Source: Planctomycetaceae bacterium
Lineage (GTDB): Bacteria > Planctomycetota > Planctomycetia > Pirellulales > JAEUIK01
Reading direction: 5' to 3'
Assembly: GCA_016793185.1 (NCBI GenBank)
Contig: JAEUIK010000674.1
Coordinates: forward strand, 1-26,261
DNA: 26,261 nt
Position 1 is the first letter of the stretch; each line of letters begins with the position of its first letter. The notes below the pieces were generated by a model, which made no database searches, was not told the DNA's origin, and was given only the letters and a program-made list of their open reading frames with translations. The translations under genes and the position numbers were made by a program. This document shows positions 6,715 through 25,301 of this stretch, piece by piece.

Positions 6715-6858
6715 CGAGAGAGTTCCTCCGACCAAGCGACTCGCAGGGGGCTTCCCGGCCCGATTGTCGCTTGTCCGCCAGGGGGACGGCAAGCCTGGCG
6801 AGCGCAGCACCGCGAGGCACAGCGGGCGCGCGAGATTTTCCCGGGAACCGTGAGCGGC

Positions 6859-8580
6859 TCAGGCCTGCTTCACGGCTTTGGGCTTGAGGATGATCTTCTC
6901 GACCGTGTCGAGGAGCTGGTCGAGCCGGAAGGGCTTGGAGAGTACCGCATCGGCCGGCAAGCCGGCGCGCCGCGCGTTGACGATCGAGTGCCCCGGGTCG
7001 TAACCGTAACCCGTCATCAGCACCAGCGGGACGACGTCGAGCACGTCCTGCAGTTTGAGCATCAGGTCGTAGCCCGACATGTCGGGCAAGCGGATATCGG
7101 CGATGATCACGTCGTAGCCCGAGTGGCCCAGCGTATTGCGGGCCATGAAGACCGCCTCGGCGCCGTCATGGGCGGTCTCGACGATGCACCCGTAACGTTC
7201 GAGCAGGGCGTGGGCGGCGCTGCGGACCGATTCGTCGGCGTCGGCCACCAGCACCTGCTTGGACTTCAGCAGCGGCCGTTCCTCGTGCTGCAGGCTTTGC
7301 GGCACCGCCTGGCTGGGGCTCATCTTCTGGCCGACGGATTGAATCACCTGTTTGATATCGCGGGCGTTGCGCAGAATGCGCTTCACGTGCTCGGCCACTT
7401 CGGGTTCGTGGCCGATGTACCGCTCCATGATGTTCACGGCGGCATTGAGGATATCGTCGACGGGGAGCGCCACGGCCGAGTGCATCGCCTCGACGCTTTC
7501 GGCGGTCGTGCCAGCCCGCTCGGCCACCAGCAGCTCCAGCGTATTGAGCGCGTTGGCCACGTCGCGCGTGAAGATCTCGAGGAACTGCAGGTCGCTTTCG
7601 GTGAAGGCGCGGGGGTCGGGGCTCTCGACATTGAAGGTGCCGATCACCTCGTCGTGGAGGATCAACGGCACGGTCAGCGAGCTCTTGGCGTCCTTCGATC
7701 CCTCGAGGAAGAGCGGATCCTCGACCGTATTCTCGCACTGGTAGCTCTTGCCGGTAGCGGCCACGTAGCCGGTGACGCCATTCCCCTGCATGCTGGCGAA
7801 GAGGACGCGCCCGGCGGCCGCGGGTTCCATCCCCACCGCCAGCAACGGCTCGAGCTTGCCGGTCTCGGCGTCGAGCAGCCGAATCTCGACGACGTCGAAG
7901 TTCAGCAGATCCTTGGTGTAGTGCAGGATGTTCGACTTCAACAGCTCGATGCGATCCTCGACCGACATATGGAACAACTCGTCGGGCGTGAGATTCGCGA
8001 GCTCGATGCCGGCGCGGTGGATCGCGGCCAGCTTTTGCTGTTGCAGGATCTCGGTCGTCAGGTCGCGGACCGTGACGATCAGATGCTGGATCGGCCCATC
8101 CCCTTCGCGAACCGGCGTGGCATGCACCCGGTAGTAGCGGTTGTCGCCCGAGCGGAGGGTCGAGGAGCTGGGAAGTCCGGTGGCCAGGGCGGTGTGGAAG
8201 GGACAGAAGTCGGGACCGAGGATCTCGGGGCTCCCCAGCACGGCGTAGAAATTGGCGCCGATGACGCTCTCGCGCCCCGACCATTCGCGGAGCCGGCCGT
8301 TGCCCCAGATGATCGTGTTGTCGCTGTCGAGCAGGACGACGCCGTCGGGCATCCCCTCGAGGATGCGTTCGTTCTGGAGGAGCTTGCCGATCTGGAAGGC
8401 GTCCTGAAAATGGGCAGCGCCGACGTAAACCCCGTCGAACTCCTCCCGCTTGAGCCGGGCCAAGGCGCGCAACATGCCTTCGGCAATGACGATGTCGGCG
8501 ACACCGTCAAACTGGGCTCGGAGCTGCTCGCCCCGCTCGCGCGAGTCGCTGACTGCCAGGATCTTTGGTTTCGTCGTCAA
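6859..8580 (-). CDS. Signalling protein: PAS + GAF + degenerate HisKA-like helix + C-terminal response-regulator receiver domain
   Basis: PAS: ILEGMPDGVVLLDSDNTIIWGN. GAF: GVTGYVAATGKS...SSLTVPLILHDEVIGTFNVES. Receiver: VLVADAD, DVIIADIRLPDMSG, LMTGY, KPF. TTG at 8580 has a GGGAG RBS 9 nt upstream and a matching promoter. Confidence 0.85.
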   Translation of the reverse strand: MTTKPKILAVSDSRERGEQLRAQFDGVADIVIAEGMLRALARLKREEFDGVYVGAAHFQDAFQIGKLLQNERILEGMPDGVVLLDSDNTIIWGNGRLREWSGRESVIGANFYAVLGSPEILGPDFCPFHTALATGLPSSSTLRSGDNRYYRVHATPVREGDGPIQHLIVTVRDLTTEILQQQKLAAIHRAGIELANLTPDELFHMSVEDRIELLKSNILHYTKDLLNFDVVEIRLLDAETGKLEPLLAVGMEPAAAGRVLFASMQGNGVTGYVAATGKSYQCENTVEDPLFLEGSKDAKSSLTVPLILHDEVIGTFNVESPDPRAFTESDLQFLEIFTRDVANALNTLELLVAERAGTTAESVEAMHSAVALPVDDILNAAVNIMERYIGHEPEVAEHVKRILRNARDIKQVIQSVGQKMSPSQAVPQSLQHEERPLLKSKQVLVADADESVRSAAHALLERYGCIVETAHDGAEAVFMARNTLGHSGYDVIIADIRLPDMSGYDLMLKLQDVLDVVPLVLMTGYGYDPGHSIVNARRAGLPADAVLSKPFRLDQLLDTVEKIILKPKAVKQA

Positions 8581-8629
8581 GCCCCGACACTCCCAGGGCA
8601 GCTTCGTCGAATCAGATGTTCCCAGCATT

Positions 8630-8658
8630 AGTATAGGTATCGTCAGGTTCGGGAACAA
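8630..8658 (-). promoter_or_regulatory. Candidate sigma70-type promoter for the PAS-GAF-receiver gene
   Basis: Minus strand TTGTTC (8658-8653), 17 bp spacer, TATACT (8635-8630). It is an AT-rich patch in a GC-rich genome, about 50 bp upstream of TTG 8580. Confidence 0.55.
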
Positions 8659-9039
8659 CGGCGCGCCGGTTTCGCCTGCCTTGAAGGACATCGGTTGCGC
8701 TGGATGCCCAGATTAACAACCGGGACCCGAATCGCCGGCGCCAGCGCATGTGCTGCCGGGCGCGTCGCACGCGGTCGCCACAATCGAACCTGCGGAGCCC
8801 CGCAGAAAGGGTGCCACGGGATCCGGAAGCCTGTGGAACCTTTGCCTGACCAATCGCGGGGCGAACCCCCGCATATCGGGACTACGCGTTGCAACTCGCC
8901 CGACCGCCACTGGGTTGCAGCCGCGGCGGCAGGGGTGCCGATGAGACTGGAGGACGCCCGACATTCTCGCCCCCGGCGAGTCGCGGTCGGCGCGGGCGTC
9001 GATCGTCTGATATCGCAACGTTTTTTGGGGTGACCCATC

Positions 9040-9297
9040 ATGTGGCGTTCGCTGTTTCTCGCGCTGGGGGCCTTCGCCGTGATCGCGGGCGTCGAGTGCC
9101 TGGTTTGCGATAAGGCCATCCTGGCCGCCAAGGGAGAACCCTCGCTCGAAGGGATGATCAACAACCCGGCCGGCGCTTCCGATGCCGTGACGCGCCGCGA
9201 GATCGTCCCGCCCGAATGGGCCCCCTGGAGCCTCCTCTCGGGCGGAGCCGTGACGATGTTGTACTCGTTCACGCTGCCGAAACGGGCCGCGGGCTAA
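9040..9297 (+). CDS. Small two-TM membrane protein, unknown function
   Basis: 85 aa ORF with ATG start and GC-rich third positions. Two hydrophobic segments (MWRSLFLALGAFAVIAGVECL; APWSLLSGGAVTMLYSFTL) flank a polar loop. Confidence 0.7.
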   Translation: MWRSLFLALGAFAVIAGVECLVCDKAILAAKGEPSLEGMINNPAGASDAVTRREIVPPEWAPWSLLSGGAVTMLYSFTLPKRAAG

Positions 9298-9332
9298 CGC
9301 CTAACCGCGGGCGGGCGGCTATCCTGAACGGC

Positions 9333-10523
9333 GTGAAGCCGACTGATCCTCAGCCGCCGCCGGCTCGCGATTCGAGCCCCGTGACCACGAACTGGCCCGC
9401 GCCGCGCGCGGCGTACATTCACGTTCCGTTCTGCGCGCATCGTTGCGGGTACTGCAATTTCACGGTGATTGCCGGCCGCGAGGATCTGGCCGACCGGTAC
9501 CTGGAGGCCCTGGCGCGCGAGCTCGAACACGTCGGAACGAGTCGTCCCGTGGAGACGATTTTCGTTGGCGGAGGCACCCCCACCCATCTGGGAATGCCCC
9601 ATCTCGCGCGATTGCTGCAAACGATTACCCGCACTTTTGCGCTGGCCCCCGGCGGCGAGTTCAGCGTCGAAGCGAATCCCAGCGGGTTGGCGGCCGATAA
9701 GTTGCGGCTGCTGGCCGAGCACGGCGTGACGCGACTGAGCCTGGGGGCCCAGAGTTTCGATCCCGCCAAGCTCCGCGTGCTCGAGCGCGACCACTCGGCC
9801 GGCGACATCCGCCGGGCGATCGAGCTCGCGCGCCGCGAGTTGCCGTCGGTCGCGGTGGATCTGATTTTTGGCGTCCCCGGCGAGAGCCTCGAGGTCTGGC
9901 AGCGCGACCTGCGCGAACTGATTCGGCGCGCTCCCGATCATGTCTCGACCTATGGGCTGACCTACGAATTGGGGACGCGCTTCTGGGCGCGACGGCGCCG
10001 CGGCGATCTGTCGTCGCTCGACGAGGAACTCGAGCGGGCACTGTACGAGGCGGCGCTCGATCTGCTTCCCGCGGCGGGCTACGAACATTACGAGGTTTCG
10101 AATTTCGCGCAATCAGGCCAACGCTGCCGACACAACGAAACTTACTGGGCCGGCAACAGCTACTGGGCCGCAGGACCGGGCGCGGCGCGCTATGTCGACG
10201 GCCGCCGCGCGGTGAACCATCAGAGCACCACGACTTATTTGCAGCGCGTGCTGCGCGGCGAATCTCCCGTCGCGCAGGAAGAGACGCTCGCCGCCGAGGA
10301 CCGCGCGCGCGAGCAGCTGGTGCTGGGGCTGCGGAGACTCGCCGGCGTTGATCGCCGCGAGTTCCAGGCCCGCACCGGTTTTGTGCTCGACGCGTTGGCG
10401 GGGCCCAAGCTCGCCGAGCACGTCGAGCGCGGGTTGCTCGCCGACAACGGCAAGGGGGTGCGGCTCACGCGCGCGGGGCTGTTCGTGAGCGATGCGATCT
10501 GGCCCGACTTCTTGCGCGTCTAG
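9333..10523 (+). CDS. hemW: Radical SAM heme chaperone HemW (HemN-like)
   Basis: YIHVPFCAHRCGYCNF (H-x-PFC-xxx-C-xx-C), IFVGGGTPT, SVEANP, RLSLGAQSFD, DLIFGVPG and GYEHYEVSNFA. Start uncertain: GTG 9333 or 9381. The track start at 9216 overlaps the upstream gene. Confidence 0.88.
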   Translation: MKPTDPQPPPARDSSPVTTNWPAPRAAYIHVPFCAHRCGYCNFTVIAGREDLADRYLEALARELEHVGTSRPVETIFVGGGTPTHLGMPHLARLLQTITRTFALAPGGEFSVEANPSGLAADKLRLLAEHGVTRLSLGAQSFDPAKLRVLERDHSAGDIRRAIELARRELPSVAVDLIFGVPGESLEVWQRDLRELIRRAPDHVSTYGLTYELGTRFWARRRRGDLSSLDEELERALYEAALDLLPAAGYEHYEVSNFAQSGQRCRHNETYWAGNSYWAAGPGAARYVDGRRAVNHQSTTTYLQRVLRGESPVAQEETLAAEDRAREQLVLGLRRLAGVDRREFQARTGFVLDALAGPKLAEHVERGLLADNGKGVRLTRAGLFVSDAIWPDFLRV

Positions 10524-10841: not shown

Positions 10842-11099
10842 GCGAAGCTGCCCAAAGCCGAGTGCGGGTAGTGGTTTCCCTGATGCCACGTCCGCCAGGT
10901 CGATCCCCCCGCGAGCCCTTTCGGCTCGCCGGCCGAGGACTCCCCAGTGTAATGTGTGAAGTGGCTCCCCGGAAAGCTCGCCCTGGGGACCTATCGAAAC
11001 CCATTCGCCGTCCGATGGTTTATATAGAGCAACTCCCAGGAGCGCTGTGGACGCGGGTTGGAACCCTGCGGCCCACCCCTTGAGGCAGAGGTACTCACC

Positions 11100-12851
11100 A
11101 TGATGCGATACAAGTGTTCAGCAATTTTGCGGTCGGCCGGCTGGCTGGTGCTGGGGTTGGCAATTTCCAGCAGCGCCGCGATTACCCGCAGCGCGGCGTT
11201 GGCCGGTCCTCTGGGCGCGGTCGAGGCCGCCCGGCGGGTGGATCGATTGCTGAGCAAGGAGTTGCCGCAGGACTCGTTGACCGCGTCGAATTCCCCTGCC
11301 CCGCCGGATCTCAAGTCGGCGGACGTCGGAGAGCCTCAAGTGGACGACGAGACGTACCTCCGCCGGGTCACCTTCGACCTGGTGGGCGAGTTGCCGTCGC
11401 CCGAGGAAGTCACGCAGTTCGTGCTGGACAGCTCGCCGAATAAGCGCAAGCAGCTGGTCGACCGGCTGCTGGCCGACGAAAAGTTCGGCGAGAACTGGGG
11501 GCGCTACTGGCGCGACGCCGTGCTGTATCGCCGCAGCGACGATCGGGCGTTGATCGCGTCGCAGAGCGTCGAGCAGTACCTCAAGGACGAGTTCAACCGC
11601 GGGGCGCATTGGGACGAGATCGCCCGCGAGTTCATCGCCGCCAAGGGCAAGCTCAACGAGGCCGGCGCGACGGCGCTGATCGCCTCGCAATGGGGCGAAG
11701 TGCCGGAGACGGCCGCCGAAGTCTCGCGGATCTTCCTGGGCGTGCAGATTCAGTGCGCCCAATGCCACGACCATCCGACCGACCGCTGGAAGCGCGAGCA
11801 GTTCCACGAGCTGGCCGCGTTCTTCGCCCGGATCGCGGTGCGACCCGTGATCGATAACGGACAGCGGAAGGGATTCGAGCTGACCTCGAGCGACATGCGC
11901 TTCAAGGATCGCACGCCGGCGCAACAGGCCAAGATCAAGGCGAATCTGAAGGGCAAGAAGAACGCCCGGCTCGAGCATTTCATGCCCGATCTGCAGGATC
12001 CGACTGCCGAGGGGAAGCTGATGGAGCCGGTGTTGTTCTTGACCGGCCAGAAGATGGAGCCGGGGGCTTCCGACGACGAGCGGCGCGCGACGTTGGCGAA
12101 TTGGATTGCTTCGCCCGAGAATCCCTGGTTCGCCAAGGCGTTTGTGAACCGCGTGTGGGGTGAATTGGTCGGCGTCGGCTTTTATGAACCAATCGACGAT
12201 CTCGGGCCCGACCGCCCTTGCGGCGCACCCAAAACGCTCGACTTCCTGGCCCGGCAGTTCGCCGAGCATGATTTCGACGTCAAGTGGCTCTACCGGACGA
12301 TCGTCGGCACCCAGGTCTACGGCGCACCGAGCCGGCCACGCTCCCCCAACGGCGACAACGTGCCGACCACGGCCTGCGTGCAGCCGCTCCGCGCGGACCA
12401 GCTGTTCAACGCCTTGACGATGGTGCTCGAAGTCGAAGAAACGCAGATCGGCGCTGCGCCCGACAAGACCAAGGGCTACCGCGGTCCGCGGACGGCGCGG
12501 GCGCTCTTCCAGCAGGTCTTCGGCTTCGATCCGAGCACGCCCCGCGACGAGCTCGCGGCCACGATTCCGCAGGCCCTTTTGATGATGAACCAGCCGGGGC
12601 TGAATCGCGCCCTGAGCGCCGAGGGCCCGACCGGGCGCCGACCGGGCACCATGTTGGCCCGGCTGCTGGAAGAAACCGAGAACGACGAGGACGTGGTGGT
12701 CGATCTCTATCTCCGCTGCTTCGCTCGCGAGCCGAAGCCCAACGAGCTAAAGACGTGCCTCGACTACGTCCGGGAAGTCGGCAATCGAACCGAGGCGTTC
12801 GAAGACGTCCTCTGGTCGCTGGTCAACTCGACGGAATTCCTCTACCGCTAA
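11100..12851 (+). CDS. DUF1549/DUF1553 (PSCyt2/PSD1) planctomycete protein with one CxxCH motif
   Basis: Signal-peptide-like N-terminus; DDETYLRRVTFDLVGELP; KFGENWGRYWRD; FLGVQIQCAQCHDHP; NPWFAKAFVNRVW; IPQALLMMN; EDVLWSLVNSTEFL. ATG 11100 follows a GAGG RBS. Confidence 0.92.
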   Translation: MMRYKCSAILRSAGWLVLGLAISSSAAITRSAALAGPLGAVEAARRVDRLLSKELPQDSLTASNSPAPPDLKSADVGEPQVDDETYLRRVTFDLVGELPSPEEVTQFVLDSSPNKRKQLVDRLLADEKFGENWGRYWRDAVLYRRSDDRALIASQSVEQYLKDEFNRGAHWDEIAREFIAAKGKLNEAGATALIASQWGEVPETAAEVSRIFLGVQIQCAQCHDHPTDRWKREQFHELAAFFARIAVRPVIDNGQRKGFELTSSDMRFKDRTPAQQAKIKANLKGKKNARLEHFMPDLQDPTAEGKLMEPVLFLTGQKMEPGASDDERRATLANWIASPENPWFAKAFVNRVWGELVGVGFYEPIDDLGPDRPCGAPKTLDFLARQFAEHDFDVKWLYRTIVGTQVYGAPSRPRSPNGDNVPTTACVQPLRADQLFNALTMVLEVEETQIGAAPDKTKGYRGPRTARALFQQVFGFDPSTPRDELAATIPQALLMMNQPGLNRALSAEGPTGRRPGTMLARLLEETENDEDVVVDLYLRCFAREPKPNELKTCLDYVREVGNRTEAFEDVLWSLVNSTEFLYR

Positions 12852-12910
12852 CGAACCATCGCCGGGGCTGAGCCGGCCTCGATCGCGCCATTCGCAGGAG
12901 CTTGTTTCCG

Positions 12911-14206
12911 ATGCGTTATGAACACCACATGCAGTTGGCGATGCACCGCCAGGGGGTTGTCCGGCGCCGCGACTTCCTCAAGGGGATTTCGGCCGCCAGC
13001 ATCGCGGCGGGCACGCTGAGCTGGACCGACCTGATGAGCGTCCACGCCGGCGACCTGCGAAAGCGCGGCATGGCCTGCATCGTGCTCTGGATGCAAGGAG
13101 GCCCGAGCCAGTTCGAAACGTTCAGTCCCAAGCCCGGCCACGAAAATGGCGGCGAGACGAAGGCCATTCAGACCTCCGTGCCAGGCATCGAGATCGCCGA
13201 GGGCTTGCCGCACCTGGCGCAGGTGATGGACGACCTGGCCATCGTCCGGTCGATGACCACCAAGGAGGGGAATCACCAGCGCGCGAGCTTCTTGCTGCAC
13301 ACGGGTTACGCGCCCACCGCCAGCGTCAAGCATCCGACCTTTGGCGCGATCGCCGCGCATCAGTTGCCCAACCCTGAGTGTGATCTCCCTTCGTTCGTGC
13401 GGATCGGCAACCAGTTCCGCAACTCGGGTGGCGGCGGTTTTCTGGGCGCCGAGTTCGACGCCTTCGGACTGCCCAGCGCCGAGCAGATGCCGGCCAACAC
13501 CCAGCCGACCACTTCCAGCGAGCGGTTCAGTCGGCGCCTGGGGTTGCTCGGCCGGCTCGAGGCCGACGCCGCCAACGGCTCGACTGCTCCCTTTGCGGCC
13601 GATCATCGCAAGCTCTACGACAAGGCCTCGCGCATGATCCTGAGCCCGGCGATGAAGACCTTCAACATCGAGGACGAGCCCGAGGCGATCCGCACGGCCT
13701 ACGGCGAGTCGGATTTCGCGACGGGCTGCTTGATGGCGCGGCGCCTGGTCGAGGCGGGCGTGACCTTCGTCGAAGTCAGCACCGGCAACTGGGACACGCA
13801 CAACGACAACTGGCCGCGCACCGCCGAGCTCAAGGCGCAGATCGATCAACCGTTCGCGCAGTTGCTCCGCGATCTCAAGCAACGCGGACTGCTGGAAACC
13901 ACGCTTGTTGTCTGGATGGGCGAGTTCGGCCGCACCCCGCGGATCAATCCCCGCGGCGGCCGCGATCACTATCCCAAGGCGTTCAACGTCGCCCTGGCCG
14001 GCGGCGGCGTCCGCGGCGGCCGCGTGATCGGCGCCACCGACCCGAGCGGCGCCGAAGTGAGCGACCGCCCTGTCGCGGTGACCGATCTCTTCCAGACTTT
14101 CTGCCGCAGCCTGAAGATCGACGCGGCGCACGAGAACATGAGCCCCATCGGCCGGCCGATCAAGATCGTCAACGGCGGTTCGCCGGTCGAAGAGCTATTT
14201 GCGTAG
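12911..14206 (+). CDS. DUF1501 family protein with Tat-type signal
   Basis: RRRDFLK twin-arginine motif; LWMQGGPSQFETF; CLMARRLVEAGVTFVEV; WDTH; LVVWMGEFGRTP; GRDHYP. AGGAG RBS upstream of ATG 12911. Confidence 0.93.
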   Translation: MRYEHHMQLAMHRQGVVRRRDFLKGISAASIAAGTLSWTDLMSVHAGDLRKRGMACIVLWMQGGPSQFETFSPKPGHENGGETKAIQTSVPGIEIAEGLPHLAQVMDDLAIVRSMTTKEGNHQRASFLLHTGYAPTASVKHPTFGAIAAHQLPNPECDLPSFVRIGNQFRNSGGGGFLGAEFDAFGLPSAEQMPANTQPTTSSERFSRRLGLLGRLEADAANGSTAPFAADHRKLYDKASRMILSPAMKTFNIEDEPEAIRTAYGESDFATGCLMARRLVEAGVTFVEVSTGNWDTHNDNWPRTAELKAQIDQPFAQLLRDLKQRGLLETTLVVWMGEFGRTPRINPRGGRDHYPKAFNVALAGGGVRGGRVIGATDPSGAEVSDRPVAVTDLFQTFCRSLKIDAAHENMSPIGRPIKIVNGGSPVEELFA

Positions 14207-14246: not shown

Positions 14247-14275
14247 TTGAGCTTTCGCGCGCCGCGGGGTAGAAC
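14247..14275 (+). promoter_or_regulatory. Possible sigma70-type promoter for the MBL hydrolase gene
   Basis: TTGAGC (14247-14252), 17 bp spacer, TAGAAC (14270-14275). The -10 match is imperfect. Confidence 0.3.
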
Positions 14276-14360
14276 GAACCCAGCCGGACGGGCCCCCCGT
14301 TCGGCGGGCGAGCCGCGCTCCGCGCTTGCCCGTCGCTTCCCCGCCAGCCGCTCGGGCTCG

Positions 14361-15380
14361 ATGATCGAACTTCCCGCCATTACCCGGCACGAGGCGTCCA
14401 ACGGCGCCCGCGTCTATCGGATTCCCTGCGAGGCGTTTCCCGGCTTCATCGCCTATGCCTACCTGGTGCTCGAGGCAGGGCCCCCCACGCTGATCGACAC
14501 CGGCAGCGGTTACAACCACTCGAACGAGCATCTCCTGGCGGGGCTCGGCAGCCTCCAGGAGACCTTCGGCGAGCCGATCGCCGTGACCGACATCAAGCGG
14601 ATCATTCTCACGCACGGTCACATCGACCACTTTGGCGGGCTGCCGCACATGGTCGAGCTGACCAATGCCGAGGTCGGCATCCACGAGCTCGACCGCCGCG
14701 TGCTCACCGCTTATGAAGAACGTGTGATCGTCGCCACCAAGTCGCTCCGCGTCTATCTGCAGCGAGCGGGCGTCGAGCGCGACTTCCAGCTCAAGCTGAT
14801 GGAGTATTACGGCTTCTCGAAGAAACACGTCCGCTCGGTGCAGGTCGACTTCACCGTGGCTGACGGCCAGGTCCTCGACGGGATGCGGTTCATCCACACG
14901 CCGGGACACTGCCCCGGGCAGGTCTGCATCGTACTGGGGGACGTGCTGCTGAGCGCCGATCACATTCTCGAGCGAACCACGCCGCATCAATCGCCCGAGA
15001 GCATCATGGCCTCCACGGGCCTGGGGCATTACCTCGAATCGCTCGATCGCGTCGGCGCGCTCGGCGGTTTTGACATTGCCCTGGGAGGCCACGAAGGGCC
15101 GATCCACGACGTCTACAAACGGATCGACGCGATCCGCGACAGCCACCAGCGCAAGCTCGAGCGCGTGCTCGATCTGATCCGCGGCGCCGAAGCCCCGCTG
15201 ACCGTCAGCGACATTTCCAAGCAGATGTATCCCACCATCAAGGGTTTCAATATTCTGCTCGGACTCGAAGAGGTCGGGGCGCATGTCGAGTACCTCGACC
15301 AGCATGGGCATCTCCGCGTGACGAACCTCGACGAGGTTGAGAACGAGGACAACCCGGCGCTGCGCTATCGGTTGGCTTAG
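14361..15380 (+). CDS. Metallo-beta-lactamase fold hydrolase with a C-terminal winged-helix-like region
   Basis: LIDTG, THGHIDH (HxHxDH), HTPGHCPG, LLSADH, GGHEG. ATG 14361 preferred over the TTG at 14247. Confidence 0.9.
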   Translation: MIELPAITRHEASNGARVYRIPCEAFPGFIAYAYLVLEAGPPTLIDTGSGYNHSNEHLLAGLGSLQETFGEPIAVTDIKRIILTHGHIDHFGGLPHMVELTNAEVGIHELDRRVLTAYEERVIVATKSLRVYLQRAGVERDFQLKLMEYYGFSKKHVRSVQVDFTVADGQVLDGMRFIHTPGHCPGQVCIVLGDVLLSADHILERTTPHQSPESIMASTGLGHYLESLDRVGALGGFDIALGGHEGPIHDVYKRIDAIRDSHQRKLERVLDLIRGAEAPLTVSDISKQMYPTIKGFNILLGLEEVGAHVEYLDQHGHLRVTNLDEVENEDNPALRYRLA

Positions 15381-18195: not shown

Positions 18196-18672
18196 ATGGG
18201 GACGAAATCGCTGCTTGGACTTTTCGCCGTCCTGTCGGTGTTCACGCTGTCGGGCCTGGGGGGCGACGCCGAAGAACCTAAGGGGGTGACCCTCCTCGGG
18301 ACGCTCGAAGAATGGCAGTACCCCGGCGCGAAGTTCGGCGGGGCGACCATGTTCGACGGTGGCAACCACCAGGTCGCCGCGACCAACTGCGAGGCGCTCC
18401 TGACGACCGACGACTCCGTCGAGCAGGTGGTCAGGTTCTACACACAAAAGTTCGTTCCCGGCCCGGCCGATGGCCGGAGTCCCCTCAAGCCGGGCGAGAT
18501 CGCGCAGGCTGTGGGCGTGCAGACCGATTCGGAGAATCGGCCCGTCGAGCTGCGCGTGATTACCGTGAACCGCGCCCGAAGTTCCACGACGCTGGTCGTC
18601 AGCCGGAGCCAGGGTGAGCAGAAGACGCACATTGCCTGGTCGCACTTTCAGTTGCTGGACCTCCCGCGCTAA
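18196..18672 (+). CDS. Small exported hypothetical protein
   Basis: 158 aa, signal-peptide-like N-terminus, GAGG RBS upstream of the ATG, G/C-ending codons. Confidence 0.75.
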   Translation: MGTKSLLGLFAVLSVFTLSGLGGDAEEPKGVTLLGTLEEWQYPGAKFGGATMFDGGNHQVAATNCEALLTTDDSVEQVVRFYTQKFVPGPADGRSPLKPGEIAQAVGVQTDSENRPVELRVITVNRARSSTTLVVSRSQGEQKTHIAWSHFQLLDLPR

Positions 18673-18702: not shown

Positions 18703-18867
18703 AGGGCGAGCGTATTGAGGGGGCCAGTCCGCGCGCCTGGCGCGAGGCCCAGCCGCGTGGTCGGCCGGTTTGGCCTTACGGTATGGCCTGCAACAGGTTA
18801 CGATTATTGTCCGGGTGGCGTCTGCCCCCTCGACGGAAATTCTCGGACCGAAGCCAGCGACCCGACC

Positions 18868-19539
18868 ATGCTGCAGCTCACGAACATCAAGAAGACCTTC
18901 ACCGAGCCTGGGGGAGGTCGCCTGCCGATCCTCGATATCCCTCGATTCCGCGTCGATGCCGGCGAGCAGCTCGCCCTGGTGGGGCGGAGCGGATCCGGCA
19001 AGACGACGCTCTTGCACACCATCGCGGGCATCAGCCGGCCCGATTCGGGCGTCGTCGAGATCGACGGCACCGATATCACCCGCCTGTCCGAGGCGGTGAC
19101 CGATCGCTTTCGGGCCGCCAAGATCGGCTACATCTTCCAGACGTTCAACCTGCTTCCGGCCTTCTCGGCGCTCGAGAACGTGCTGCTGGGGATGAGCTTT
19201 TCGCGGGGACGGGCCGATGAAGCCCGGGCCCGGCTGCTGCTCGACCGCGTGGGGCTCGGACATCGGCTGGCGCACAAACCCCAGATGCTCTCGGTGGGCG
19301 AAAAGCAGCGCGTGGCAGTCGCGCGGGCGCTGGCGAACCGGCCCAAGCTGATGCTGGCCGACGAACCGACGGCCAACGTCGACGCCCGGCATCAGCAGCA
19401 GATCATCGACCTGATCGTCGGGGCCTGCCGCGAGGAGAATGTGGCCCTGGTGCTGGTGACGCATGCCACCGAGGTGGCGGAGCAGTTCGAGCGCCTGGAG
19501 CACCTCGACCAACTCAATCAAGCGGTGGCCAACGTATGA
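18868..19539 (+). CDS. ABC transporter ATP-binding protein (LolD/MacB-type, PA4064/ZrgB-like)
   Basis: Walker A GRSGSGKT, Q-loop IFQTFNL, variant signature LSVGEKQR, Walker B LMLADEPT, H-loop VTH. ATG 18868 preferred. The stop overlaps the next start (ATGA). Confidence 0.93.
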   Translation: MLQLTNIKKTFTEPGGGRLPILDIPRFRVDAGEQLALVGRSGSGKTTLLHTIAGISRPDSGVVEIDGTDITRLSEAVTDRFRAAKIGYIFQTFNLLPAFSALENVLLGMSFSRGRADEARARLLLDRVGLGHRLAHKPQMLSVGEKQRVAVARALANRPKLMLADEPTANVDARHQQQIIDLIVGACREENVALVLVTHATEVAEQFERLEHLDQLNQAVANV

Positions 19540-21059
19540 GTCTCTGGAAGATCGCCTGGCGCAGTATTCAGCAGCGGACACTGGCTTCGAGCCTGACCGC
19601 CTTGTCGATGGCGCTGGGGGTGGCGCTGGTCGTGGCGGTGCTGGTCATTTACGGCGTGGTGCAATCGTCGTTCACCCGCGCGGCGCACGGCTACGATCTG
19701 ATCGTCGGCGCCAAGGGGGGCAAGCTGCAGCTTGTCCTCAATACCGTCTTTCACCTGAGCCAGCCGATCGAGAACATTCCCTGGAGCTACTACAAGGAGT
19801 TCCAGCCGGGAGGACGCTTCGCCTCGCGCGTCGAATTCGCCATCCCCTACTGCCTGGGGGATAACTACGAAGGGTACCGCGTCGTCGGCACCATTCCCGA
19901 GATGTTCTCCGCGGTCGAGTACGCGCCGGGCAAGCACTACGAGTTCTCGGCGGGCGAGAATTTCAAGAAAGACAACTACTTCGACGCGGTCGTCGGATCG
20001 GTGGTGGCCAGGCGCACCGGGCTGAAGGTCGGCGACCACTTTGCCCCGACGCACGGGATCAGCGCCGAAAAGGACGGCCATAAGCACGACGAATTTCACG
20101 TCGTGGGGATTCTCGCGCCGACGGGGACTCCCAACGATCGCGCGGTCTTCGTCAACATTGAGGGCTTCCTGCTGCTCGACGGCCACGCCAAGCCCGTCCC
20201 CAAAGAGGAAAAACCCGCCGCGACGGCACCCGCGCCCGACGGAAGCCACGCCGGGGAGCATGACCACGCCCATGAGAAAGCGCATGACGAGCACGCGCAC
20301 GGCGGCGAAGAAGGGGATCACCCCCCGGCAGCCGGCGAGGCTCAAACGGCCAAGCAGGCGGATGACGAGCACGCACACGCGGAGCACTCTCACGCCGACG
20401 AGCATGCCCATGGCGACGAGCACGCTCATGCCGATGAGCACGCCCATCATCACGATCACGACCATGACCATGGTCACCATCATCACCATCACGAGCCACT
20501 CCCCGAGAATCAGCGCGAGGTGACGGCAGTGCTCGTCAAGAGCACGCTGGTCGGCGGCCTGTCGCTTCCGCGCACGATCAACAAAGAGCAGTACGCCCAG
20601 GCCGTGTTCCCCGTGCAAGAGATCCAGATGCTGTTCAAGGGTCTCTTGGGGAATTTTCAGATGCTGCTGTTCGGGCTGGCGCTGCTGGTCGTGATCGTCT
20701 CGGGCATCAGCATCATGGTGAGCATCTACAACTCCATGAACGATCGCCGCAACGACATCGCGGTGATGCGGGCCCTGGGGGCCAGCCGCTCGACGGTCAT
20801 GGCCATCATCCTGCTGGAGTCGATTCTGCTGGCCGTCGGCGGGGGGGTGGCGGGCGTGCTCATCGGGCACGGCCTGATCGCCGCTCTCGACCCGATTATC
20901 GAGGCCCAGACAGGCATCCGGATCGGTTTCTTGAAGTTTGAGTGGGTTGAGTTAGTTTTAATACCGGCCCTGGTGGTGCTGGCCGCGGTGGTAGGCTACC
21001 TGCCTGCCGTGGTGGCCTATCGCACCGATGTGGCGGGAGCCCTGAGCGAGCGTCCCTGA
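19536..21059 (+). CDS. ABC transporter permease, MacB/FtsX family (PA4065/ZrgC-like), with His-rich periplasmic insert
   Basis: TM1 followed by DLIVGAKGGKLQLVLNTVFH, IPYCLGDNYEGYRVVGT and FHVVGILAPTGTPNDRAVF; three C-terminal TMs with RRNDIAVMRALGASR; His-rich insert at 20241-20492. Confidence 0.9.
   Translation: MSLWKIAWRSIQQRTLASSLTALSMALGVALVVAVLVIYGVVQSSFTRAAHGYDLIVGAKGGKLQLVLNTVFHLSQPIENIPWSYYKEFQPGGRFASRVEFAIPYCLGDNYEGYRVVGTIPEMFSAVEYAPGKHYEFSAGENFKKDNYFDAVVGSVVARRTGLKVGDHFAPTHGISAEKDGHKHDEFHVVGILAPTGTPNDRAVFVNIEGFLLLDGHAKPVPKEEKPAATAPAPDGSHAGEHDHAHEKAHDEHAHGGEEGDHPPAAGEAQTAKQADDEHAHAEHSHADEHAHGDEHAHADEHAHHHDHDHDHGHHHHHHEPLPENQREVTAVLVKSTLVGGLSLPRTINKEQYAQAVFPVQEIQMLFKGLLGNFQMLLFGLALLVVIVSGISIMVSIYNSMNDRRNDIAVMRALGASRSTVMAIILLESILLAVGGGVAGVLIGHGLIAALDPIIEAQTGIRIGFLKFEWVELVLIPALVVLAAVVGYLPAVVAYRTDVAGALSERP
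20241..20492 (+). repeat. His/Asp/Glu-rich low-complexity coding repeat, including imperfect 18-bp (A/G)DEHAH units
   Basis: 29 His in 84 codons; ADEHAH-GDEHAH-ADEHAH, then HHDHDHDHGHHHHHH. Confidence 0.9.
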
Positions 21060-21090
21060 CGCCGCAGTCTTTCAGCCGAGGAGTGACGCC

Positions 21091-22767
21091 ATGCGTCGCA
21101 TGCTCTCGAAGTGGACCTTACCGCTCTGTGTCGCGCTGGCGTTGGTACCGGCTGCCGCACTGGCCTGCCCCTTTTGCAGCGGCGTTTCGCTCACGCTCAG
21201 CGAAGAGATGAAGACCGCCACGGCCGCCGTGGTCGGCAAGCTCGTCTCGCTCCCCCCCGCTCCGGCCGACGGCCAGCCGCTGACCGGAGCCGACAGCAAG
21301 GCGGTCTTCGAGATCGTTACGGTCCTCAAGGGCGAAGATCTCCTGAAGACGGCCGACGCGCCGGCCGTGGGTCGCCAGATCGACGTGATCTATTTCGGCC
21401 AGGACGAGCCGGGCAAGCTCTTCTTTCTGCTCGGAAACGACACGCCCAACGTGAGTTGGGCCACGCCGATCCCGTTGACCGAGCGTTCGGCCGAATACGC
21501 GGCGAAGCTGCCCGGCCTGCCCGAGACGGGCGCCGATCGCCTGGCGTTCTTCCAGGACTACTTCGAAGACACCGAGGAGCTTCTGGCCCGCGATGCCTAC
21601 GATGAGTTCGCCAAGGCGCCGTACATCGAGGTCAAGCAGCTCAAGGAGCGAATGCAGCACGATAAGCTCGTCGCGCGGATCAAAGATCCCAACGTCTCGC
21701 CGAGCCGGCGGAGGCTGTACTTGACGATGCTCGGCGTGTGCGGCAGCAAGGACGATCTGCCGCTGCTCGAAGAAATCGTCAAGAGCCAGAATCCCGAGCA
21801 GAAGTCGGCCCTCGATGCGACGATCGCCTGCTATCTGACGCTCAACGGCGTCGATGGCCTGCCGCTGATCGAGGAGCTGTTCCTCAAGAAACCCGATGCC
21901 GAATACACCGACACGTACGCCGCGATCATGGCTTTGCGGTTTCATGGGCAGGAGGAATCGCAGATTCCGCGCGAGCGCTTGGTCGCGTCGTTGCGATTGA
22001 TGCTCGACCGCCCGGAGCTGGCCGACCTGGTGATTCCCGATCTCGCCCGCTGGCAGGATTGGTCGGCCATGGATCGGTTGGTGCAGCTTTTCAAAGAGGC
22101 CGACGAGCAGTCGAGCTGGGTGCGGGTGCCGGTGATCAAGTACCTGAAGGAGTGCCCGTTGCCGGAGGCGAAGGCGCACATCGAGGAGCTCGCCAAGATC
22201 GACCCGAAAGTGGTGCAGCAGGCCAATAGTTTCTTCCCGTTGGTGGGAGCCCCGGCGCCGCCGGCCGCTGCGGCCGATCCCGCCGCCACGGAACCTGCGG
22301 CGACCGACACGGCGGCAACCGCACCGGCGGCCGTCACGAATCCCCCCGCCGAGGGCGCAGCGAGCGAAGCTCCTGCCGATTCGACTCCGCCGGCCGAGAC
22401 CCAGGCGGCGACCGACAAGCCGGCCGAGACCGCCACGGAGCCGGCTGCCGCCGCGACGGCGCCCGAGGAGGCGTCCACGGCTGCCGCCAGTCCGGCCGAG
22501 TCGTCGGAGGCACCCGCCGCAGAACCCGCCAAGCCGGCAGAGCCGGCCAGTGCGGCGGAAGCGTCGCCTGCGGCGACGGCCGCGGTCGGGACCCCGCCCG
22601 CGACCGGAGCGATCGCAGCACCAGCGGCGGAGCGGGCCGTCGAGATCCGCGAGAATCCCTGGACGACCATGTTCTGGGTGCTCGCCATTCCGCTGGCGGT
22701 CGGCGTAGTATTGATGGGACTGCTGTTGGTGATCCTGCGTGGGCAGCGCCCTTCGGCGAGCGCCTGA
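21091..22767 (+). CDS. Exported protein with predicted N-terminal CPFC, helical (HEAT-like) core, Ala/Pro/Glu/Thr stalk and C-terminal membrane anchor
   Basis: Signal peptide ending ALA followed by CPFC (21166-21177); low-complexity stalk at about 22246-22629; TM FWVLAIPLAVGVVLMGLLLVIL followed by RGQR; GGAG RBS. Confidence 0.85.
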   Translation: MRRMLSKWTLPLCVALALVPAAALACPFCSGVSLTLSEEMKTATAAVVGKLVSLPPAPADGQPLTGADSKAVFEIVTVLKGEDLLKTADAPAVGRQIDVIYFGQDEPGKLFFLLGNDTPNVSWATPIPLTERSAEYAAKLPGLPETGADRLAFFQDYFEDTEELLARDAYDEFAKAPYIEVKQLKERMQHDKLVARIKDPNVSPSRRRLYLTMLGVCGSKDDLPLLEEIVKSQNPEQKSALDATIACYLTLNGVDGLPLIEELFLKKPDAEYTDTYAAIMALRFHGQEESQIPRERLVASLRLMLDRPELADLVIPDLARWQDWSAMDRLVQLFKEADEQSSWVRVPVIKYLKECPLPEAKAHIEELAKIDPKVVQQANSFFPLVGAPAPPAAAADPAATEPAATDTAATAPAAVTNPPAEGAASEAPADSTPPAETQAATDKPAETATEPAAAATAPEEASTAAASPAESSEAPAAEPAKPAEPASAAEASPAATAAVGTPPATGAIAAPAAERAVEIRENPWTTMFWVLAIPLAVGVVLMGLLLVILRGQRPSASA

Positions 22768-22808
22768 GTCCCCTGCCCTGCCTCGCAAGCTGACGGAACC
22801 AGAGAACG

Positions 22809-23483
22809 ATGAGCGTCGCCTTTGCCGAAAACTCGTACTCCGGCATGACTCCCGAGGGGGAGGATTATCGCGCCCTGAGCTCGACCGCCGTGGCGAGCCT
22901 CGTTGCCGGGGTTCTCTCGGTGCTCTGCTTTTTGGGATGGTCGATGGCCATCCTGCCTTTGCTGGGCGTGCTGCTCGGCGCGCGGGCACTCTGGAGCATT
23001 CGCCGCACGCCCGACGAACTGACCGGCAAGCGCCTCGCCGTGGCGGGAATCGTGCTCTCGCTGGCCTGCTTTGCCGGCGGCTGGGGATGGTTGAGCTACG
23101 TCTATCTGACGGAGGTGCCCGACGGTTACACCCGCGTCTCGTTCAGCCAGTTGCAGCCCGACGCCTCGCGGCAGGGAGAGATCTTTCCCCCGTCAGCCTT
23201 GGAGCTGGATGGCAAGCGCGTGTTCATCAAGGGCTACGTCAAGCCGGGCGCACAAGCCGGCGGCATCAAGGAGTTCCTGCTGGTGCGCGACTTGCGCGAG
23301 TGCTGCTTCGGCGATTCGACGCCCAAGTTGACCGACATGGTTCTGGTACGCTTGCAGGATCCGCTGCGGGCCGATTTCTCGCTCTGGCCGCGTGGTTTGG
23401 CAGGCACGCTGCACGTCAAACCCGACGCGCTGGGACGACCCGACAGCGTGCTGTACTCCCTCGACGCGGACTATCTGAAATGA
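22809..23483 (+). CDS. DUF4190-like membrane domain fused to a DUF3299-like domain
   Basis: N-terminal AVASLVAGVLS...LLGVLLGARALWSIRR...GKRLAVAGIVLS is DUF4190-like. C-terminal LDGKRVFIKGY...FLLVRDLRECCFG is DUF3299-like. Confidence 0.8.
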   Translation: MSVAFAENSYSGMTPEGEDYRALSSTAVASLVAGVLSVLCFLGWSMAILPLLGVLLGARALWSIRRTPDELTGKRLAVAGIVLSLACFAGGWGWLSYVYLTEVPDGYTRVSFSQLQPDASRQGEIFPPSALELDGKRVFIKGYVKPGAQAGGIKEFLLVRDLRECCFGDSTPKLTDMVLVRLQDPLRADFSLWPRGLAGTLHVKPDALGRPDSVLYSLDADYLK

Positions 23484-24151
23484 TGCATCGTCTGCGGAGA
23501 GCCGGGCTGGCCTGCGGAGTGCTCGCCAGCTGGGGACTTGCGGGCTGCGAGAAAGCCGAGCTCGACGCGCCCCTCCCGCCCCCGGCGGTCGCCGAGGAGT
23601 CGGCGACGTCAGCGACGACGCCCCCGTCACCAGCGGCGGCCCCCGAAACGACGGCGGCTGCGACTTCCGCTGCGCTGCCTGCGGATCCGCGCGGCGGCGC
23701 AACACCTCCGGCGGCCGCGGCCCCGCCTCCGCCCAGTCGCCCGCGCGCTGCCAGCACGGCGCGGCGCAAGCCCGGCGAAGTGCAGGAGATCACCTTCGAC
23801 GACATCAAGTTTCCGATGGAGAAGGAGGATCCGTTCAAGCGTGAGCTGCTGACGCCGCAGATCGTGGCGCTCGACGGCCAGCCGATTCGGATTCGGGGCT
23901 ACATTCTGCCGAGCTTCCAGCAGACGGGCATCACGCAATTCGTGCTCGTGCGCGACAATCTGCAATGCTGCTTCGGCCCTGGCGCCGCGCTCTTCGATTG
24001 CATCATTGTCGAGATGCGCCCCGGCAAGTCGACCGATTACACGGTGCGGCCGGTGAGCGTCGAGGGCAAATTCACACTCGCCGAACTGGTCAATCCCGAC
24101 GATGGCAAGCATCTGGCCATTTATCATCTCGACGGCGAGAAAGTTCAGTAG
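23480..24151 (+). CDS. DUF3299-like lipoprotein (PA4066/ZrgD-like)
   Basis: ATG 23480 overlaps the upstream TGA. Lipobox LAG|C at C23, a Pro/Ala linker, then EITFDDI...LDGQPIRIRGYILP...FVLVRDNLQCCFG...VSVEGKF. The track start at 22739 is an upstream artefact. Confidence 0.85.
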   Translation: MMHRLRRAGLACGVLASWGLAGCEKAELDAPLPPPAVAEESATSATTPPSPAAAPETTAAATSAALPADPRGGATPPAAAAPPPPSRPRAASTARRKPGEVQEITFDDIKFPMEKEDPFKRELLTPQIVALDGQPIRIRGYILPSFQQTGITQFVLVRDNLQCCFGPGAALFDCIIVEMRPGKSTDYTVRPVSVEGKFTLAELVNPDDGKHLAIYHLDGEKVQ

Positions 24152-25301
24152 CCGCGCCAGCCTGGCGCCGCTCTGGAGCGCGTGCGCGATCGGCGTCGCG
24201 ACGCTGTGCTTGAGCGCGGCCCCGGCCAGGGCCTGCCCCTTCTGCAATGCTGTGCTTCCCTCGTTCGCGCAGACGCGTGAAGCCGCCGAAATCGTCGCCC
24301 TGGGCGAAGTCACCCGCAGTGAACCCCAGTTAGCCGTCCTGCTGCGGGGAGTGCTCAAGGGCCAGGATCGAGCGCGGGCGGGCGAGCGCATTGAAGTGGA
24401 GCGGGTCGAGCCGCTGGCCCCGGGCAGCCTGTGCCTGCTCCTGGCCACGACGGCCGTCGAGCCGAGCGTCAAGGAACCAGGACTGGTCTGGACCTACCGG
24501 CCGGTGACGGAGACGAGTTACGCGTACTTTGCCCGAGCGCCGGAACTGCGCGTCGCTGGGCCGGAGCGTTTGCGCTACTTCGCCCGCTACCTCGAGCACC
24601 CCGACGCCAACATCGCGGCCGACGCGTACCTCGAGTTTGGGCATGCCCCGTTCGACGTCGTGGCACAAGCGGCCGACTCCCTGCCGCTCGAGAGCATGCG
24701 CCGCTGGATCGTCGACGAGAACGTGCCTCAGGAGCGCAAGGGCTTCTATGGGCTGGCACTGGGATTGGCGCGCGAGGCCCGCATACGCGGCGAGAACGCG
24801 GCGCTGCTCGCGCGTCTGGTCCGCGAGCCAGCCGACGATTTTCGCGCCGGATTCGGCGGCATCCTCAGCGGATATCTGCTGGCCGCGGGTGAGCCGGCGC
24901 TCGATCTGCTCGACGAACGTTTTCTGGCCCAAGCGGGCGCCGCCGATGGAGATGTCCGCAGTGCGCTGGCGGCGCTGCGGTTTTATCACGAGTTCGGCAA
25001 GGAGATTCCGCACGAGCGATTGCGCGCCAGCTTGCGCCACCTGGTGGCCCGCCAGGAGTTCGCGGCGGAGGCGATCGTTGATCTGGCCCGCTGGCAGGAT
25101 TGGGGAATGGTGAGCGAGGTAGCGCGCTTCTACGATGCTCCCGCCGAGGTGCAACCGTCGGCGCGTCGGGCCGCGGTGGGTTATTTGTCGGCCTGTCCCT
25201 TGCCGGCAGCGGCGGCCGAACTGGCCGAGCTGCGGGCCCGCGATCCGCGTGGAGTGGGGGATGCGGAGGCTTATCTCAAGGCGTTCGGCGCCCTGCGCTG
25301 A
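24102..25301 (+). CDS. Exported CPFC protein, paralog of 21091-22767, without stalk or membrane anchor
   Basis: ARA followed by CPFC (24234-24245). Shares blocks with 21091-22767: DAYxEFxxAP(Y/F), DLARWQDW and YLxxCPLPxA. Start codon uncertain. Confidence 0.8.
   Translation: MASIWPFIISTARKFSSRASLAPLWSACAIGVATLCLSAAPARACPFCNAVLPSFAQTREAAEIVALGEVTRSEPQLAVLLRGVLKGQDRARAGERIEVERVEPLAPGSLCLLLATTAVEPSVKEPGLVWTYRPVTETSYAYFARAPELRVAGPERLRYFARYLEHPDANIAADAYLEFGHAPFDVVAQAADSLPLESMRRWIVDENVPQERKGFYGLALGLAREARIRGENAALLARLVREPADDFRAGFGGILSGYLLAAGEPALDLLDERFLAQAGAADGDVRSALAALRFYHEFGKEIPHERLRASLRHLVARQEFAAEAIVDLARWQDWGMVSEVARFYDAPAEVQPSARRAAVGYLSACPLPAAAAELAELRARDPRGVGDAEAYLKAFGALR

Follow-up and report, generated by a model that had tools for sequence, protein, structure and literature searches.

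Contig JAEUIK010000674.1 of the Planctomycetaceae bacterium assembly GCA_016793185.1, analysed over its whole length of 26,261 bp (the window), carries at positions 18868–25301 a six-gene operon that is real and conserved in Pirellulales. The genes encode an ATP-binding cassette (ABC) ATPase, a MacB-fold (type VII) permease featuring a His-rich insert, two DUF3299 proteins marked by a CCFG motif, and two proteins, CPFC1 and CPFC2, that share a CPFC motif. We estimate at about 55% the probability that the operon is a lineage-specific variant of the Zrg/PA4063-66 zinc-starvation system, the products of which handle a divalent metal, probably zinc, in the periplasm.

All six genes are present on the + strand and are co-directional, with junctions of −4, +31, +41, −4 and −50 bp as calculated from their coordinates (Table 1), in agreement with an earlier note on this DNA, in which they were described as overlapping or closely spaced. 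Pfam searches bore out the identities proposed there, i.e., ABC_tran for the ATPase, FtsX and MacB_PCD for the permease, DUF4190 for the fourth protein and, above the cut-off, DUF3299 for the lipoprotein. The translations also contain the LSVGE signature of the ATPase, which features the Walker A motif GRSGSGKTT as well, and the ligand clusters singled out in the note (29 His, CPFC, CCFG, CCFG and CPFC), all located at the places claimed for them.

All of the loci found in a scan of species-representative genomes (80/80) belong to metagenome-assembled genomes of Pirellulales or Planctomycetia. The six genes occur in the same order in 40 of the 54 Pirellulales loci with at least 6.5 kb of upstream sequence, and on two further long contigs (L002 and L003); the linkage of CPFC and DUF3299 genes, on which the proposal of the earlier note hinged, is found in many genomes. 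In other families of the class, the gene order is rearranged yet the genes are linked, and the number of CPFC genes varies. For instance, family f2 has a single CPFC gene, and in family f4 the ABC pair is followed by the arrangement DUF4190-DUF3299-CPFC-CPFC. The ABC pair is present in three complete f4 genomes as well, but it lies 1.3–2.2 Mb away. The CPFC family was detected in 26 of 401 Planctomycetota genomes (20/20 in f4, 2/2 in f2, and weak matches in f28), whereas the DUF3299 domain is present in 125 of the 401 genomes, across many families. On this basis, the ABC-DUF3299 core is widespread in Planctomycetota and the CPFC proteins, within the reach of the query, are a narrower addition.

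The ATPase is 59–72% identical to its orthologues in related operons. Its best NCBIfam models are LolD, FtsE and DevA, all of which score below their cut-offs. The ABC pair does not fall within the curated Lol, FtsEX or MacB equivalogs, as evidenced by NCBIfam scores far below the cut-off in each case (LolD, 199.5 against 307.75; FtsE, 167 against 264.85; lolCE, 41.2 against 362; MacB, 29.5 against 966). The permease consists of a first transmembrane helix, a large periplasmic domain and a C-terminal FtsX domain with the remaining membrane helices, four helices overall. Its nearest solved chains are MacB, LolE, YtrF and LolF, and the match is confined to the FtsX domain. The protein contains 39 His residues in total, 29 of which fall, together with 22 Asp/Glu residues, in the insert at residues 236–319, part of which is encoded by an 18-bp repeat (4.8 copies at 20364–20447). 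The His content of the insert ranges from 4 to 48 residues among eight aligned orthologues, and from about 1 to 68 over 46 loci. A His cluster of the H-G-x5-G-H-x-H-D-E type, located just before the insert, is kept in all of the aligned orthologues (8/8).

DUF3299 and CPFC proteins

The protein encoded at 22809–23483 has DUF4190 helices at the NH2 terminus (2.7e-11) and an oligonucleotide/oligosaccharide-binding (OB) domain carrying CCFG at the COOH terminus. The positive loop between the helices suggests that the protein is oriented towards the periplasm. The earlier note had described it as a DUF4190-DUF3299 fusion. The DUF4190 part of this description holds; the DUF3299 part is not supported by the Pfam model (PF11736), which gave 17.4 bits, below the cut-off of 22. 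The protein is still a clear DUF3299 paralogue, as evidenced by the shared CCFG motif and by tblastn, in which it and the lipoprotein matched each other in all loci.

The lipoprotein features a lipobox (LAGC), which is present in most homologues, followed by a Pro/Ala-rich linker and an OB domain with CCFG, and scores 26.2 bits against the same model. CCFG is invariant in both paralogues (10 orthologues each, all from other loci, the window copies being read from their own translations), and it is found in 149 of 150 representative homologues. Among 1.84 billion representatives, 1971 relatives were found at E ≤ 0.001. By sequence, the lipoprotein matches the PDB entry 4hsp (phmmer E 0.019), the second Cys of CCFG being aligned with the Cys of an a-C-i-H motif. 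The same entry is the top PDB match of the AlphaFold2 (AF2) model (Foldseek E 6.9e-8) and is followed by generic OB folds. The CCFG loop is the single low-confidence stretch of the modelled OB domain, with a predicted local distance difference test score (pLDDT) of 64. Entry 4hsp is PA4066, a protein with an OB-like fold and an unassigned role (PMC8561739). Few papers mentioning DUF3299 were retrieved by a full-text literature search.

CPFC1 and CPFC2 matched no Pfam or NCBIfam family, and a full-text search found no paper on the CPFC family or on the planctomycete operon. The two proteins are paralogues, sharing 32% identity across the entire alignment and 34% within the matched stretch. CPFC1 consists of a signal peptide, the CPFC motif, a body made of a barrel and ARM/HEAT repeats, an Ala/Pro/Glu-rich linker and a C-terminal transmembrane helix. 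Among its 46 orthologues, 41 feature the CPFC motif and 33, according to a crude test, a C-terminal hydrophobic helix. CPFC2 has at least 570 homologues, and all those with a source name are Pirellulales proteins annotated as “hypothetical protein”. The motif is present in 116 of the 120 best homologues of CPFC2 and is invariant in a 66-row alignment, which includes CPFC1 and two Pirellulaceae paralogues. Neither CPFC nor CCFG is thus a chance occurrence. At positions −3 and −1 relative to the first Cys, 113 of 115 homologues have residues compatible with signal peptidase I, whereas only 18 of the 115 feature a lipobox. Because the signal peptidase I site precedes the first Cys, mature CPFC2 should begin with a free Cys-Pro-Phe-Cys. 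We also considered the CPFC proteins as lipoproteins and ruled this out, as the residues at −2 and −3 suit signal peptidase I rather than a lipobox.

The first ~16 codons of CPFC2 (24102–24151; MASxWPSIISMAKKSN in many homologues) overlap, in another frame, the part of the DUF3299 gene that encodes its conserved C-terminus, and the overlapped gene may be the cause of the apparent conservation of this N-terminal extension. Many CPFC2 homologues begin at a later Met, and the corresponding position is a Thr codon in the window.

In the AF2 model of CPFC2 (pLDDT 91.6), a small beta barrel (residues 64–135) is followed by an ARM/HEAT solenoid (137–394). Whole-model fold searches returned only generic ARM/HEAT repeats, as the solenoid dominates the PDB matches. 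When residues 45–140 are considered, the nearest named neighbours in the protein atlas are TIMP, NTR and NtA clusters (PF00965 or PF01759), with feature scores of 0.76–0.80 and a best structural TM-score of 0.67/0.50. These values suggest that the N-terminal barrel may be TIMP/NTR-like, a lead rather than proof. TIMPs inhibit metalloproteases by means of an N-terminal Cys, which blocks the zinc of the enzyme. CPFC2 may resemble them in having a small OB-like barrel and a mature chain that starts with the Cys that is essential in TIMPs. In contrast, CPFC2 lacks conserved counterparts of the barrel cysteines with which Cys1 and Cys3 form disulfides in TIMPs: only C45 and C48 are invariant, and C111 and C365 vary (66-row alignment). 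Moreover, the CPFC2 barrel forms one chain with an ARM/HEAT solenoid, and CPFC2 is not known to have a protease partner.

Mature CPFC2 and the OB domain of the lipoprotein were modelled as a complex with a score of 0.74, while the best of three controls scored 0.00. Among solved complexes, 58 of 80 attain a score of 0.74, as do 2 of 110 mismatched pairs; these counts are approximate for this model, since custom alignments were used. The OB domain is placed in the concave face of the solenoid, and the confident contacts include the CPFC tip (45–46 and 49–53) and residues 158–161, which lie beside the CC pair. The model supports a predicted binding of CPFC2 to the DUF3299 domain, and each CPFC protein probably pairs with one DUF3299 protein.

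The permease, which features MacB_PCD and FtsX domains, and the LolD/FtsE-like nucleotide-binding domain relate the ABC pair to MacB, LolCDE and FtsEX. As in FtsEX and LolCDE, there is neither a fusion protein nor TolC: Pfam searches revealed no membrane-fusion (HlyD-type) or outer-membrane channel domain, whether among the six proteins or among the neighbours that were examined. The pair probably acts on periplasmic partner proteins. Its partners are DUF3299 and CPFC proteins and not LolA, EnvC or MacA, and the scores against the curated Lol, FtsX and MacB models are far below the cut-off.

This kinship makes it conceivable that the system does not handle metals, and that a mechanotransducing motor of the FtsEX or LolCDE manner switches or releases a periplasmic complex in which the cysteines are structural. 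Its task could be, for instance, the release of lipoproteins, or the inhibition or control of a metalloprotease through a TIMP-like CPFC tip. We consider this quite unlikely. The best models of the ATPase are LolD and FtsE, but all Lol and FtsE scores fall far below the cut-offs. ARM/HEAT solenoids usually bind peptides or proteins and one of the DUF3299 proteins is itself a lipoprotein; however, no protease or hydrolase gene is linked to the operon in the loci examined. As for the TIMP/NTR clusters nearest to the CPFC2 N-terminal domain, the likeness does not extend to the disulfide partners. Finally, both the zigA-type operator described below and the His-rich loops of the permease point to metal.

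Upstream region and candidate operator

A palindrome, TTGCAA-N5-TTGCAA, was found ahead of the ATPase gene in genomes of families f4 and f2; across the orthologous operons, its distance from this gene is 76–151 bp. The palindrome is perfect in one locus (L039) and has one mismatch in three (L034, L035 and L040), while only a degenerate core is found in L041. When up to two mismatches are allowed, it occurs in 9 of 44 further upstream regions, always at −76 to −116, compared with 0.23 occurrences expected from shuffles.

The same palindrome recurs in front of other genes in two genomes. In G370, exact copies lie 52 bp upstream of a Fur-family gene (PF01475) and 98 bp ahead of a unit of two genes, the second of which is a COG0523 gene (zigA cluster). 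In G070, a copy with one mismatch lies directly upstream of a COG0523 gene. The product of the latter is an equivalog of the ZigA zinc metallochaperone (600.8 bits, NCBIfam cut-off 600); the truncated COG0523 protein of G370 scores 459 bits against the same model. Two COG0523 (cobW-family) genes, a Fur-family gene and the operon are all found inside 40 kb in G070, the second COG0523 gene reaching only 205 bits against the ZigA cut-off. A Zur-type operator is the most economical reading of the palindrome in the genomes that bear it. In G070, G344, G270 and G190, the second Fur-family gene is not preceded by the palindrome.

In the genome from which the window derives, tblastn with the Fur-family regulator of G370 gave no match; a PF01475 profile search identified two Fur-family genes, and no palindrome was found near either. 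Zinc control of the window's operon would follow from orthology only. The region upstream of the ATPase gene features the layout TTGGnCTTGT, 16–18 nt, TACGAT, which is found in at least 11 related loci, suggesting that the block at 18770–18804 may act as a promoter. An AT-rich element, GGTTACGATTATTGT, was considered as an operator and rejected, as it corresponds to the −10 part of this promoter-like block, which is common to relatives. A single other near-match of GGTTACGATTATTGT is present in the genome, inside a coding region, and approximately one chance hit is expected. A full-text search found no paper on metal regulation in Planctomycetota.

The palindrome also lies 33–255 bp upstream of four genes encoding DUF1559 (prepilin-type, SBP_bac_10) proteins in G070 and G370 (Table 1); a zinc regulon may include some members of this very large planctomycete family. 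At least two of these genes (L082 and L084) are followed by a small lipoprotein gene, and a third (L083) by a gene encoding a CehA/McbA-type metallohydrolase. The palindrome-fronted zigA unit of G370 is adjoined by a gene (L054:1812-2300) encoding a secreted 162-residue protein rich in His, Asp, Glu and Lys. In two Pirellulaceae loci, a second, weaker palindrome (1–2 mismatches) is located at the start of the DUF4190-DUF3299 gene (L034:8001 and L035:11630), after a gap of ~500 bp behind the permease gene, and could be an internal promoter or operator.

Relation to known systems and proposed mechanism

The zrg and PA4063-66 operons encode a MacB-like permease, a separate ATPase, a DUF3299 protein (ZrgE/PA4066) and a His-rich DUF2796 protein (ZrgA/PA4063), and are controlled by zinc (PMC9817125, PMC11481552, PMC9820375). 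PA4064/65 and ZrgB are MacB-like, have a split ATPase and are controlled by Zur (PMC11481552, PMC9820375, PMC9817125). The core made of the ABC pair and DUF3299, which the earlier note had recognised in the window, is common to these systems, as evidenced by the match of the lipoprotein to PA4066 in both sequence and fold. The Vibrio member of the DUF3299 family is ZrgE (PMC9817125, PMC9820375), and not ZrgD as given in the note.

The planctomycete operon resembles these systems in several respects. In both, a separate ATPase and a four-helix MacB-like permease with a large periplasmic domain are encoded in the same operon as a periplasmic DUF3299 OB-fold protein, and a His-rich sequence that would catch metal is found somewhere in the system. 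In addition, related planctomycete copies lie behind a candidate operator common to zinc-starvation genes. In contrast, the planctomycete operon has neither ZrgD nor a ZrgA/PA4063 (DUF2796) protein, and its His tract sits inside the permease. Two membrane-anchored DUF3299 paralogues are present in the window, with CCFG where PA4066 has a-C-i-H, and the two CPFC barrel-plus-solenoid proteins have no counterpart. The absence of a ZrgA-like gene agrees with the earlier note: PF10986 (DUF2796/ZrgA) gave no match above the cut-off in the six operon proteins, in their own genome (G000) or in four relatives (G070, G270, G190 and G370). The note had gone further and inferred that the fused His loop and the CPFC proteins replace ZrgA, a claim that is not supported by the spread of insert His content among orthologues (about 1 to 68), nor by the presence of DUF3299 in 125 of 401 genomes and of the CPFC family in just 26. 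The operon is best filed as a variant of the Zrg/PA4063-66 kind rather than as a strict member.

A membrane-anchored periplasmic OB-fold carrier, the cargo handling of which is coupled to an ABC ATPase, is also found in the CcmE/CcmABCD system, and CcmE is among the weak fold matches of the DUF3299 model (rank 20, TM-score 0.26/0.32). However, this is a generic OB-fold likeness, the HxxxY haem motif is absent from the DUF3299 proteins, and the ABC type differs.

In the proposed mechanism, a split MacB-fold motor, composed of the cytoplasmic ATPase and the four-helix permease with its large periplasmic domain, would act with two OB-fold DUF3299 proteins, anchored at the membrane by DUF4190 helices or by lipid, and with two CPFC proteins (TIMP-like barrel plus ARM/HEAT solenoid), one of which would be tethered at the COOH terminus and the other free. 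The divalent metal, most likely Zn2+, would be caught by the His/acidic loop of the permease and by the conserved His cluster, and would then move, by exchange of ligands, between the two vicinal cysteines of DUF3299 and the CPFC tip at the NH2 terminus of the solenoid partner. ATP hydrolysis, acting through the MacB-type stalk, would drive the loading or the release of the metal, which would not be pumped through a channel, because the MacB-type fold has none. Zinc is indicated because related operons share their operator with zigA and a Fur-family gene.

Several points weigh against a zinc-handling variant of the Zrg/PA4063-66 system. The poly-His insert is not conserved and is nearly absent in one family, and the four cysteines themselves are absent from the confident contacts of the complex model. 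Cys ligands are unusual for periplasmic zinc, and suit Cu(I), Cd, Hg or redox chemistry. A palindrome scan upstream of the window's operon and of its closest relatives (L002 and L003) was negative; in the window's own genome, which is 82% complete, tblastn found no ZigA homologue, and the palindrome is not enriched. Moreover, some orthologous operons, including the unlinked ABC pairs of G043 and G156, have no palindrome or a degenerate one in their upstream region, and genomic sites with one mismatch are numerous (42 in G070, as compared with 18 for the control). As for the described systems, PA4066 shows no evident zinc binding and zrgE knockouts have no phenotype (PMC11481552, PMC9820375), while PA4064/65 has been proposed to be an exporter of pyochelin-cobalt and not a zinc importer (PMC11481552).

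The cysteines may instead belong to a soft-metal or thiol-redox system: the substrate of the CxxC tip and of the vicinal Cys pair would then be Cu(I), Cd(II) or Hg(II), or the two motifs would act as a disulfide relay, and the MacB-type motor would expel or detoxify metal from the periplasm in place of supporting zinc supply. Such a system, which we hold to be unlikely, would account for the exclusive use of cysteine among the invariant ligands of the accessory proteins. Transfer proteins for Cu(I) and Hg(II) typically feature CxxC and CC pairs and, to our knowledge, all characterised MacB-type systems act outward from the periplasm. The His/Asp/Glu tracts, however, favour Zn, Ni or Co, and the operator of related operons is held in common with genes for a ZigA-type chaperone and a Fur-family protein and not with copper or mercury genes. 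The six genes include no MerR/CueR-type regulator, P-type ATPase, membrane-fusion protein or outer-membrane channel. An outward direction is nevertheless consistent with the exporter role proposed for PA4064/65 (PMC11481552).

Export could also concern a metallophore or a metal-chelate complex, with the DUF3299 and CPFC proteins serving as periplasmic adaptors, an explanation that we regard as very improbable. The core of the ABC pair and DUF3299 is held in common with PA4064-66, and a PA4065 mutant accumulates pyochelin and cobalt (PMC11481552). However, no metallophore synthesis genes are present in the window or beside related operons (L002 and L003), no outer-membrane or fusion component is encoded, and the accessory proteins are membrane-tethered and Cys-based, which is not suggestive of small-molecule export.

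Zrg/PA4063-66 systems are strongly induced by zinc starvation in pathogens, and their mechanism is disputed: zinc import has been proposed for Vibrio and pyochelin-cobalt export for Pseudomonas, and no role for DUF3299, the structure of which is solved, has been found. If the preferred reading of a zinc-starvation variant is carried further, DUF3299 may be the docking module of Zrg-like systems; in planctomycetes, its flexible loop with the vicinal Cys pair would form an intermolecular thiolate metal site with the free CPFC tip of a TIMP-like/ARM partner, gated by the MacB-type motor, and TTGCAA-N5-TTGCAA may define a planctomycete Zur regulon that includes DUF1559 pilin-like proteins. We consider this extension doubtful. 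If true, it would provide a first mechanistic handle on a disputed class of ABC systems induced by zinc starvation. New points of attack are also offered by the planctomycete variant itself, in the invariant Cys motifs of DUF3299 and in a dedicated family of partners with predicted docking on this domain, while the membrane tethers of the parts suggest their arrangement. A candidate zinc operator and regulon for Planctomycetota is also obtained.

Features and neighbourhood of the operon

Table 1 Coordinates of the operon, its upstream block and the palindrome-fronted DUF1559 loci. Coordinates refer to the window, except where a locus is named.
Feature	Coordinates	Strand	Details
Promoter-like block	18770–18804	+	TTGGCCTTAC ... 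TACGAT, 64 bp upstream of the ATPase start; putative
ABC ATPase	18868–19539	+	223 aa; Pfam ABC_tran 7.7e-35
MacB-fold (type VII) ABC permease	19536–21059	+	507 aa; FtsX 2.9e-16, MacB_PCD 5e-10
His/acidic insert within the permease periplasmic domain	20241–20492	+	residues 236–319; 29 His and 22 Asp/Glu
CPFC1	21091–22767	+	558 aa; CPFC at residues 26–29 (21166–21177)
DUF4190/DUF3299 protein	22809–23483	+	224 aa; CCFG at residues 165–168 (23301–23312)
DUF3299 lipoprotein	23480–24151	+	223 aa; CCFG at residues 163–166 (23966–23977)
CPFC2	24102–25301	+	399 aa; CPFC at residues 45–48 (24234–24245)
Palindrome-fronted DUF1559 locus	L083:3874-4885		G070
Palindrome-fronted DUF1559 locus	L084:2713-3826		G070
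Palindrome-fronted DUF1559 locus	L082:6421-7896		G070
Palindrome-fronted DUF1559 locus	L045:455-1517		G370

The sequencing runs that match the stretch are nearly all DNA metagenomes (sludge, freshwater, bioreactor); a single, doubtful RNA run contains 6% of the words sampled. The gene that immediately precedes the operon, at 18196–18672, encodes an exported protein of 158 residues with no Pfam family. The gene is not kept at that position in relatives, in which SmpB and RidA genes are found instead. Further upstream, the region at 4969–10523 encodes a tandem carbon-nitrogen hydrolase (613 residues), a PAS-GAF-receiver protein (610 residues) and a HemN-like radical SAM enzyme. A typical planctomycete pair, in which a DUF1549 (PSCyt2) and DUF1553 (PSD1) protein is followed by a DUF1501 protein, is encoded at 11058–14206, and a metallo-beta-lactamase-fold protein at 14247–15380.

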